36,310 nt of DNA from Nitrospinota bacterium (lineage in GTDB: Bacteria; UBA8248): the NCBI GenBank assembly GCA_046581755.1, contig JAYGFR010000250.1, positions 1 to 36,310 of the forward strand, in the 5' to 3' direction. Made by a program: the position numbers. Positions 35,101-36,310 of the stretch are shown piece after piece. Each line of letters opens with the position of its first letter. Position 1 is the first letter of the stretch.

Positions 35101-36310
35101 TCCCGTTTGCTGAAAAGCCCGCCATATCGCCAGGACGGCTCCGGCGGCCGGGAAATCGCTCATTTATGGTGGAATTCCGGTATCAAACCCCTTTCGGCGC
35201 GGCCTCTCCATCCACGAAAATATCCTCCACGCGATCGGGATAGAAGGCCAAAAGCCCCTTGATTTTAGAACACTCCGGGAGCGGGTCGGGATAGCTCCAC
35301 ACCACGTCCTCGAATGTTTCACCGTTCACTTTGGCGGACCAATAGATGGCTTTCCCCTTGTAGGGGCAGCCCGAGGTCCTCTCTGACCGCACCAGCAAGT
35401 CCATTCGGACATCTTCTTCGGGAAGGTAGTATCGGGCCGGGAGTCCCGTCTCGAACAAAAGATGGGGGCTCCGGCTCTCGGCGATGGTTTCTCCACCGAG
35501 GAGAACGCGGATGTGGCGACTGCTTCCCAGCGCATCCACGCGCTTATAGGGATCGCGCGCGTGGACGAATATCTCATCCTCCTCTTCGTGCCAGGAATCC
35601 ATCTTGCCCCAATAAAAAGCGATATATCCGGCGATTTCAGGGACGCTCTCGATGGGGTCCTCATAGCTCCAAACCGCGTTTTCCGCCGTCCGGTCCCGGA
35701 CGGTCAGCGTCCAATAGGACGCCTCTCCCTTGACGGGTCAATGGGTGAGGTTGTCGGTCCGCTCCATGAGGTCCATCCGGACGTCCTCGGGAGGGAAATA
35801 GTATACGGGCCGGTGCCATGCCTCGCGCATCAAAAGGGCGCGCTTGCTGTCTGCGACGGTTTCTCCGTTAAAGGCCACCCGCACCCTCCTGGGGGATATT
35901 TCGTTATTCACCCAATGGTCCCCATCGCCCCCGTCACTCGGATTTGCTTTGGATGCCATCATCCAATTCCTCCCTATTCGGTAAAATTCCAAAATCCCGC
36001 CGCGAGGCGGGTCCGACAATTGCCCGGTTCCCGGCGATTCCATCCAAACGGATTCAGGACACTTTAATTCCATTCCAGGTATGATGAAAGTGTCTAGTCC
36101 CTCAAGGCAGAATTCCTCGAACCGGCCAGAGAGAGGGCTGGCGGGGCAGGGGAGTTCCCGGAATACCCTAAAATGGAACGGCTTGGCGGGATGGTGAGAA
36201 AATGCAATGAATATCAAATATTTATCATGCAAAAACCTGACGTTGCGCTTTAAATTTACCCTCTCAAATGATTCATTTTGATTGACAAATCAGGTGTTGA
36301 AATGGCACAT

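Follow-up and report, generated by a model that had tools for sequence, protein, structure and literature searches.

A tandem DUF427 gene with a probable in-frame selenocysteine codon in a Nitrospinota genome

The locus and its reading frame

Here we describe a two-domain DUF427 gene that carries an in-frame TGA codon in a bacterium of the Nitrospinota (GTDB UBA8248; assembly GCA_046581755.1, contig JAYGFR010000250.1). The gene lies at the end of a housekeeping contig, convergent with der (33605-35011), in the window of 36,310 nucleotides. Its features, all on the minus strand, are as follows.

35183..35962, minus strand: tandem DUF427 gene, 259 codons when read through TGA75 (translation with TGA=U, Pfam, family alignment)
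35969..35975, minus strand: Shine-Dalgarno-like AGGGAGG, with the first ATG 6 nt on and the second 9 nt on (sequence)
35609..35884, minus strand: DUF427 repeat 1, including predicted Sec75, E47, K78, W98 and Y100 (Pfam, homologue alignment, model)
35738..35740, minus strand: in-frame TGA, codon 75, inferred selenocysteine, in the context LTH-U-PVKG
35234..35512, minus strand: DUF427 repeat 2 with Cys199 and Cys231, a candidate catalytic/resolving pair (alignments)
35368-35366, minus strand: Cys199 codon (CPYKG) in repeat 2
35272-35270, minus strand: Cys231 codon in repeat 2
35185-35183, minus strand: terminal TGA of the gene (sequence)

Translation of 35962-35183 (minus strand) with TGA read as selenocysteine (Sec, U) gives a protein of 259 aa from a frame that starts at two adjacent ATGs and holds a single internal TGA, at codon 75, besides the terminal TGA. 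Under the standard code the same stretch yields a stub of 74 codons and, from Met121 on, an ORF of 139 aa. PF04248 (DUF427) is matched twice in the 259-aa protein (Pfam, E 6.6e-72; 237.8 bits in two stretches against a gathering cut-off of 22.1), and the NCBIfam profiles gave no match at E<=1, as had been noted before. A first-pass annotation had joined two called genes, g00420 and g00419, into one 259-aa double-DUF427 gene, a union borne out by the frame, by the two PF04248 matches and by selection up- and downstream of the TGA. The residue aligned with U75 is Cys in the DUF427 structure 3djm (TACPLKG), in agreement with the same annotation, and C199 in repeat 2. The tandem is a stand-alone protein with no output domain.

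A contig from an RNA library (X3 35629-35779) covers TGA75 with no change listed at the codon, which indicates that the TGA is not an assembly error; the RNA-run data consist of contigs only, at low depth and with patchy coverage, and neither expression level nor strand is readable from them. A promoter and terminator scan gave results at chance level. In the ESM Atlas the 139-aa piece of the protein is present, and the C-terminal piece has a match of 0.75 only. Elsewhere in the window an ORF at 7866-9359 (plus strand) carries a response-regulator receiver domain followed by LpxC, an unusual fusion.

Conservation and selection at codon 75

TGA75 is kept in all 15 genomes of the family that cover repeat 1 (42 genomes, 27 without a match), extending an earlier count of 10 of 10. 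The 15 carriers span seven of the nine genera, and the codon is never TAA or TAG. Site 75 is Cys in 118 of the 120 top protein homologues, and site 199 in 120/120, so the earlier placement of a predicted Sec at a conserved Cys of repeat 1 holds. Among 80 metagenome loci the site-75 codon is TGC/TGT in 53, TCA/TCG in 21, TGA in three and something else in three, with no TAA or TAG. Ser, Asp or Ala takes the place of the Cys in repeat 1 of 24 of these 80 homologues, and His does so in four class-level tandems; on this sequence evidence the Cys/Sec site of repeat 1 is dispensable in some lineages. The class-level tandems (L024, L027, L032 and L040) have HHPKLG or DHPHRG at the site, and L040 also lacks the repeat-2 Cys. 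Class-level homologues had been cited before as lacking the TGA; four do lack it, but the four that were translated have His and hence are not Cys-form controls. The serine codons, exclusively TCA or TCG (21/80) and one step from TGA, prompted us to consider a Sec-to-Ser history, which was ruled out: the Ser genes are without hairpins and group with Cys forms, at a distance from the Sec groups. One member of the family, L015 (G004), is a single-domain Sec form in which repeat 1 joins the C-terminal tail directly.

Purifying selection acts on both sides of the TGA, with dN/dS between 0.05 and 0.29 overall in a set of 14 family genes from which the frameshifted L012 was left out. At genus and family level, respectively, the ratios are 0.14/0.24 for codons 20-74, 0.07/0.22 for codons 76-95, 0.05/0.19 for codons 96-120 and 0.11/0.19 for codons 121-255. 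Synonymous divergence (pS) is 0.31/0.37 in the hairpin codons versus about 0.5-0.7 in the remaining gene segments. Codons 76-120 would be untranslated in a split gene, and their purifying selection therefore counts against one.

These data bear on the alternative that TGA75 is a true stop. The gene could then be a pseudogene, the codon could be a sequencing error, or two genes could encode a 74-aa fragment and, from Met121, a 139-aa protein. Gene callers do break the frame in two, the Atlas contains the 139-aa piece, and isolated in-frame TGAs exist in the assembly, as in pyrB; one family copy, L012, also appears decayed. However, the TGA is the same in 15/15 family genes from seven genera and in 91 GTDB loci, codons 76-120 are under purifying selection, Met121 is not conserved, domain 1 would be halved, and the codon co-occurs with selB. 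We regard the true-stop reading as largely refuted and very improbable.

L012 (G030) has lost one base and gained one later, just 3' of the TGA, and has further changes at conserved sites, the picture of a decaying gene or of assembly noise. The pyrB gene (C86:30464, minus strand; L238/L272) has an in-frame TGA where four of five relatives have Cys and one has Met; no SECIS-like hairpin was found 3' of it, and its TGA is probably an assembly error or a nonsense change. This control shows that a single genome is insufficient for a Sec call and that conservation decides. Single in-frame TGAs without strong hairpins also occur at L233, L237, L240, L256, L258 and L262, in genes for M24 peptidase, cNMP-binding, response-regulator/GGDEF, molybdopterin-binding, polysaccharide-export and dienelactone-hydrolase proteins.

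Two hairpins behind the TGA

The sequence 3' of TGA75 can form two hairpins.

35706..35723, minus strand: hairpin 1, G-less loop TATT 21 nt past the TGA, synonymous sites of the stem fixed
35686..35703, minus strand: hairpin 2, 7 bp, loop GGAC 41 nt past the TGA, invariant first loop G, candidate SelB site

The first-pass annotation had described a single conserved hairpin whose loop lacks the canonical G. A conserved hairpin does stand 3' of the TGA, but there are two rather than one, and the G-less loop (TATT/TACT) is that of hairpin 1; hairpin 2 has the G in 15 of 15 sequences.

The stretch that forms both hairpins scores z -2.88. Against synonymous shuffles, hairpin 1 stands out (z<-2) in 12/14 TGA genes, compared with 2/53 Cys and 1/21 Ser genes, and at the counterpart position in repeat 2 the figure is 0 of 13. 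In its stem Ala81 is encoded by GCG in 14/14 TGA genes versus 19/53 Cys genes, the synonymous base in its loop varies, and no two-sided changes were found in it. Hairpin 2 beats the shuffles in fewer TGA genes (6/14; Cys 2/53, Ser 0/21). It has seven cells with two-sided changes, a number reached by 0 of 500 shuffles in a comparison that does not control for relatedness. Loop position 1, a synonymous site, is G throughout the family (15/15), with compensatory changes. This base is the third of codon 89, G in 14/14 TGA genes and 4/53 Cys genes; nine of the 14 TGA genes encode Arg here, the family norm being Gly. Rfam returned nothing meaningful.

The bSECIS consensus model (PMC13188914) calls for a G in loop positions 1-2 at 16-37 nt from the UGA. 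Neither strong hairpin fits it, and a weak alternative fold (-4.8 kcal) alone does; a canonical element is missing from about 13% of BSepDB entries (PMC13326102). Among the catalogued selenoprotein genes hand-picked from the same genome, 25 of 25 have a G-loop within 15-37 nt, most at 16-25 nt, by a lax test that 32% of random TGAs pass and that the DUF427 gene passes only via the -4.8 kcal fold. A G-less SelB site would thus be out of line, and hairpin 2 is on present sequence evidence the likelier SelB site of the two. Elsewhere the Sec forms are laid out differently. In SAR202 Ser82 is replaced by Gln or Arg and a GUAC loop stands at 20 nt, in accord with the consensus; Acidimicrobiia forms have an invariant GGUC loop at 25 nt, also in accord with it, whose lack of variation leaves no covariation support; and single proteobacterial genes have G-loops at 30, 33 and 36 nt. 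For the gene described here we favour an arrangement in which SelB would act from the GGAC loop of hairpin 2 and hairpin 1 would fold out of the spacer, shortening it so that the loop comes to lie at a usable distance; we hold this somewhat more firmly than not.

Selenocysteine machinery and spread of the Sec form

The genome encodes selA and selB (C136), a selD with its own TGA (C268) and tRNA-Sec (C264). Of the 15 family carriers, 13 yielded selB and 12 yielded tRNA-Sec; a single carrier, whose genome is 67% complete, yielded neither. A coding-score screen combined with Pfam, applied to 40 hand-picked candidates, yielded 24 further genes of catalogued selenoprotein families in the same genome, from AhpD/CMD, Prx, TlpA, OsmC, GrdA/B, rhodanese, DsbA and others; the organism is, by prediction, rich in selenoproteins. 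In BSepDB an isolate under GTDB UBA8248 is credited with 54 selenoproteins (PMC13326102). The loci L234-L271 hold many AhpD/CMD-like CxxU and OsmC-like paralogues, and L248 and L250 combine a CxxU motif and a GGUC hairpin with no Pfam match.

The tRNA-Sec is the sole tRNA with a TCA anticodon found in this genome, which speaks against another reading of the codon, as Trp or Cys through a variant code or suppression. We found no point in favour of that reading; moreover, the DUF427 gene uses TGA as its own terminal stop, in place of the TAA or TAG of its relatives, and homologues have Cys at the site, not Trp. It is about as improbable as any explanation we considered. The predicted selenocysteine at codon 75 is consistent with every computational line examined save the strict bSECIS consensus, and SelB would almost certainly deliver Sec-tRNA to UGA75.

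The Sec form proved more widely spread than the first-pass annotation had it. A GTDB scan with the pattern T-x-TGA-P-x-K-G-x-A-x-Y-[W/Y], which misses variants and returns related loci that are not independent, found 99 loci, 91 of them DUF427 and most of these from SAR202 Chloroflexota and Acidimicrobiia. The record titles give Chloroflexota 54, Acidimicrobiia 23, Nitrospinota, Tectomicrobia or unlabelled 9, Alphaproteobacteria 3, Lambdaproteobacteria 1 and Gaiellaceae 1. From the 82 GTDB loci outside the family, 50 were tested for selB, which was present for 48; one of the other two has selA and tRNA-Sec, and the second is the Gaiellaceae genome, where selA and selB were not found and the tRNA score was borderline. 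The Gaiellaceae tandem (L223) has its TGA in repeat 2 with a G-loop hairpin behind it. L163, in a record titled Rhodospirillaceae, is a SAR202-type Sec-DUF427 gene whose motif and hairpin stretch are the same as those of L159, which may reflect either transfer or mis-binning.

In trees built without the single-domain DUF427 forms, the Sec genes of the family fall among Cys forms, separate from the SAR202 Sec genes. Several independent origins of Sec are nonetheless not established, as a single Sec clade is not rejected by an AU test on 42 chosen rows (p-AU 0.218).

Fold, reactive site and probable function

A structure model with Sec modelled as Cys (pLDDT 91, pTM 0.83) matches 3djm closely (Z 19.1, rmsd 1.3, 113 aligned; Foldseek E 8e-11). 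The next structural matches of this domain, named NTP_transf_9 in Pfam, are beta-tent proteins at Z 4-9: Mis18 (9.4, 8.3), YPEL5, RIG-I/MDA5/LGP2, cereblon, MsrB1 (5.9), MSS4, TCTP and GFA. According to PMC4287342, beta-tent proteins have in common a groove for binding, bounded by the beta4-beta5 loop and an inserted hairpin; they are mostly binders and not enzymes, and have a zinc site that DUF427 lacks. Invariant in 120/120 homologues are E47, K78, W98 and Y100, and likewise Y54, Y55 and G79. By topology, residue 75 would end beta4 at the rim of the groove. W98/Y100 roughly match CULT W99/Y101 and MsrB H111/F113 in our own mapping, made without residue-level superposition.

A second Cys, 32 residues downstream, moves between the repeats with the presumed active residue, a pattern suggestive of a selenol/thiol redox cycle. 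Across 196 aligned tandems, 141 of the 165 that have C199 also have C231, as do 2 of the 31 that lack C199, and Cys107, the repeat-1 equivalent of residue 231, is present in 26 of 30 non-family Sec forms with Ser199. The latter looks like a catalytic/resolving pair shifted to the Sec repeat, in a swap that is largely that of a single SAR202 clade. The protein described here has Sec75 without Cys107, plus C199 and C231.

Sec usually marks a redox working residue, and the Cys of the C-P-x-K-G motif is for that reason the likely reactive centre of DUF427. Given Sec, the protein is probably a selenol/thiol oxidoreductase. In the mechanism that we propose from the model, Sec75 would sit at the edge of the beta-tent groove, on the turn between beta4 and beta5, with W98 and Y100 as the floor and E47 and K78 on the flanks, and would attack a small substrate, oxidised or electrophilic, a placement and role that we consider likely. 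In repeat 2 Cys199 would perform the same attack and Cys231 would resolve it. Repeat 1 offers Sec75 no such partner Cys here, and its recycling would fall to a thiol from outside, for instance thioredoxin or a small-molecule thiol.

Two other roles for an encoded Sec were weighed. One is that the domain is a redox or ligand sensor or carrier, in which a modified Sec or Cys alters binding or signalling. Among the best 120 longer homologues, 104 have a single DUF427 domain, which stands at the N terminus in 102 and retains the Cys in 103, and in most of them (including P0137-P0241) a class III adenylate/guanylate cyclase domain (PF00211) follows; together with the binding role of most beta-tent proteins, this would suit a sensor. 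The tandem, in contrast, stands alone and lacks an output domain, the second Cys goes with the active repeat and is found in 1 of 103 single-domain longer forms, and Sec is usually found at catalytic redox sites (PMC13188914). We consider a sensor unlikely here. The other role is that of a one-shot electrophile or alkyl scavenger, a sulfur or selenium carrier, or a soft-metal ligand. Such roles occur among catalogued selenoproteins (MGMT, rhodanese, metal-binding; PMC13188914), and the single-domain Sec forms of Acidimicrobiia have no Cys within 55 residues of Sec (23/23), hence no partner. The invariant E47, K78, W98 and Y100 and the covariation of the Cys pair nevertheless favour a specific catalytic site, and the beta-tent zinc site is missing from DUF427, making these roles less likely still. 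Of the readings considered we therefore return to the redox enzyme: a two-DUF427 gene in which TGA75 very likely encodes Sec and whose product is likely a selenol/thiol redox enzyme, with a probability of roughly 0.6.

Genomic context offers weaker clues to function. The neighbourhoods of Sec-DUF427 genes consist mainly of lineage-specific housekeeping genes. Four of the 15 family carriers (L009, L010, L011 and L015) have msrB some 500 nt further downstream in the same orientation, and in the genome described here it is absent from that position; in L011 a PilZ-like ORF lies between the two genes. Rv0140 of M. tuberculosis, which we take to be a DUF427 protein, was given no weight in this reading. 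It is SigH-regulated, as are msrB and trxB (PMC4803200). Table 1 of PMC13674229 has COG2343 co-encoded with 5.7% of ergothioneine-type sulfoxide synthases, a link that is a clue of the same weaker kind as the msrB neighbours. ECDomainMiner has linked PF04248 automatically to deoxyhypusine monooxygenase (PMC5307852).

Significance and comparison with known systems

DUF427 is widespread in bacteria and fungi and has no known function. Its Sec form would extend the 2026 catalogue by a family not listed there, and by pointing to the C-P-x-K-G cysteine as the reactive centre it tells the biochemist what to assay. New selenoprotein families appear regularly (119 are listed), and the surprise is moderate. 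Gene callers split the Sec form in marine SAR202, in Acidimicrobiia and in the UBA8248 lineage, and one coding constraint served by several SECIS layouts makes a natural series for studying SelB-UGA distance limits. The parts of greatest interest are, on our predictions, the two-hairpin SECIS and the Cys-pair swap. A broader proposal, which we offer tentatively and with some doubt, is that DUF427 proteins are thiol oxidoreductases and include the first bacterial Sec beta-tent, served by a SECIS of two hairpins whose G-less helix would loop out the spacer ahead of a G-loop at 41 nt, the phyla having slid the loop to 20, 25, 30, 33, 36 or 41 nt around one protein constraint.

As to novelty, the earlier statement that searches had found no report of a Sec-DUF427 agrees with what we found. 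Table 1 of the 2026 review (119 families; PMC13188914) has no entry for DUF427, PF04248 or MsrB, and neither the DUF427 fold nor the U-P-x-K-G motif is among the families listed. The accessible part of the deep-Sep paper (PMC12013277) contains no DUF427 selenoprotein, and the available main text of BSepDB (PMC13326102) makes no mention of DUFs, its supplementary family table lying outside the comparison. Searches on DUF427, COG2343, PF04248, NTP_transf_9, Rv0140 and SAR202 selenoproteins, with most subscription journals outside their range, returned no report of a Sec-DUF427; apparent hits in PMC5897793 and bioRxiv 2023.09.22.558817 are DUF4277 and DUF4278.

The nearest relatives are the Cys forms of DUF427/PF04248/COG2343 (3DJM; Cys tandems of about 265 aa), which share the two PF04248 domains, the T-x-C-P-x-K-G motif and about 60% identity with the protein described here, but have a Cys in repeat 1 where the gene described here has the predicted Sec codon, followed by selected RNA hairpins. 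Human MsrB1 is a selenoprotein. The MsrB/SelR proteins resemble DUF427 in the beta-tent fold (MsrB1 3mao, Z 5.9; PMC4287342) and through the msrB neighbour in 4/15 carriers. However, the DUF427 protein lacks the zinc CxxC pairs and the R-[YF]-C-x-N catalytic motif, it has no PF01641 match, and hhalign gives a probability of 0.1 against a 4-sequence MsrB alignment. The reactive residue of MsrB is on beta7, whereas that of DUF427, inferred from topology, would be on the beta4-beta5 turn. Cereblon CULT, Yippee, Mis18, the RIG-I CTD and GFA have the same fold (Z 4-9) and bind zinc, most of them being ligand binders that lack a catalytic Cys; in DUF427 the zinc site is missing, and the rim of the groove carries a Cys/Sec that is nearly invariant. 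With bacterial genes that carry an intragenic SECIS (PMC13188914; selD, AhpD-like and Prx in the same genome) the gene shares the UGA at a conserved Cys position, a stem-loop just 3' of it, and a genome with selA, selB, selD and tRNA-Sec; it differs from them in that its hairpin at canonical spacing is G-less and its G-loop stands 41 nt, and not 16-37 nt, from the UGA.
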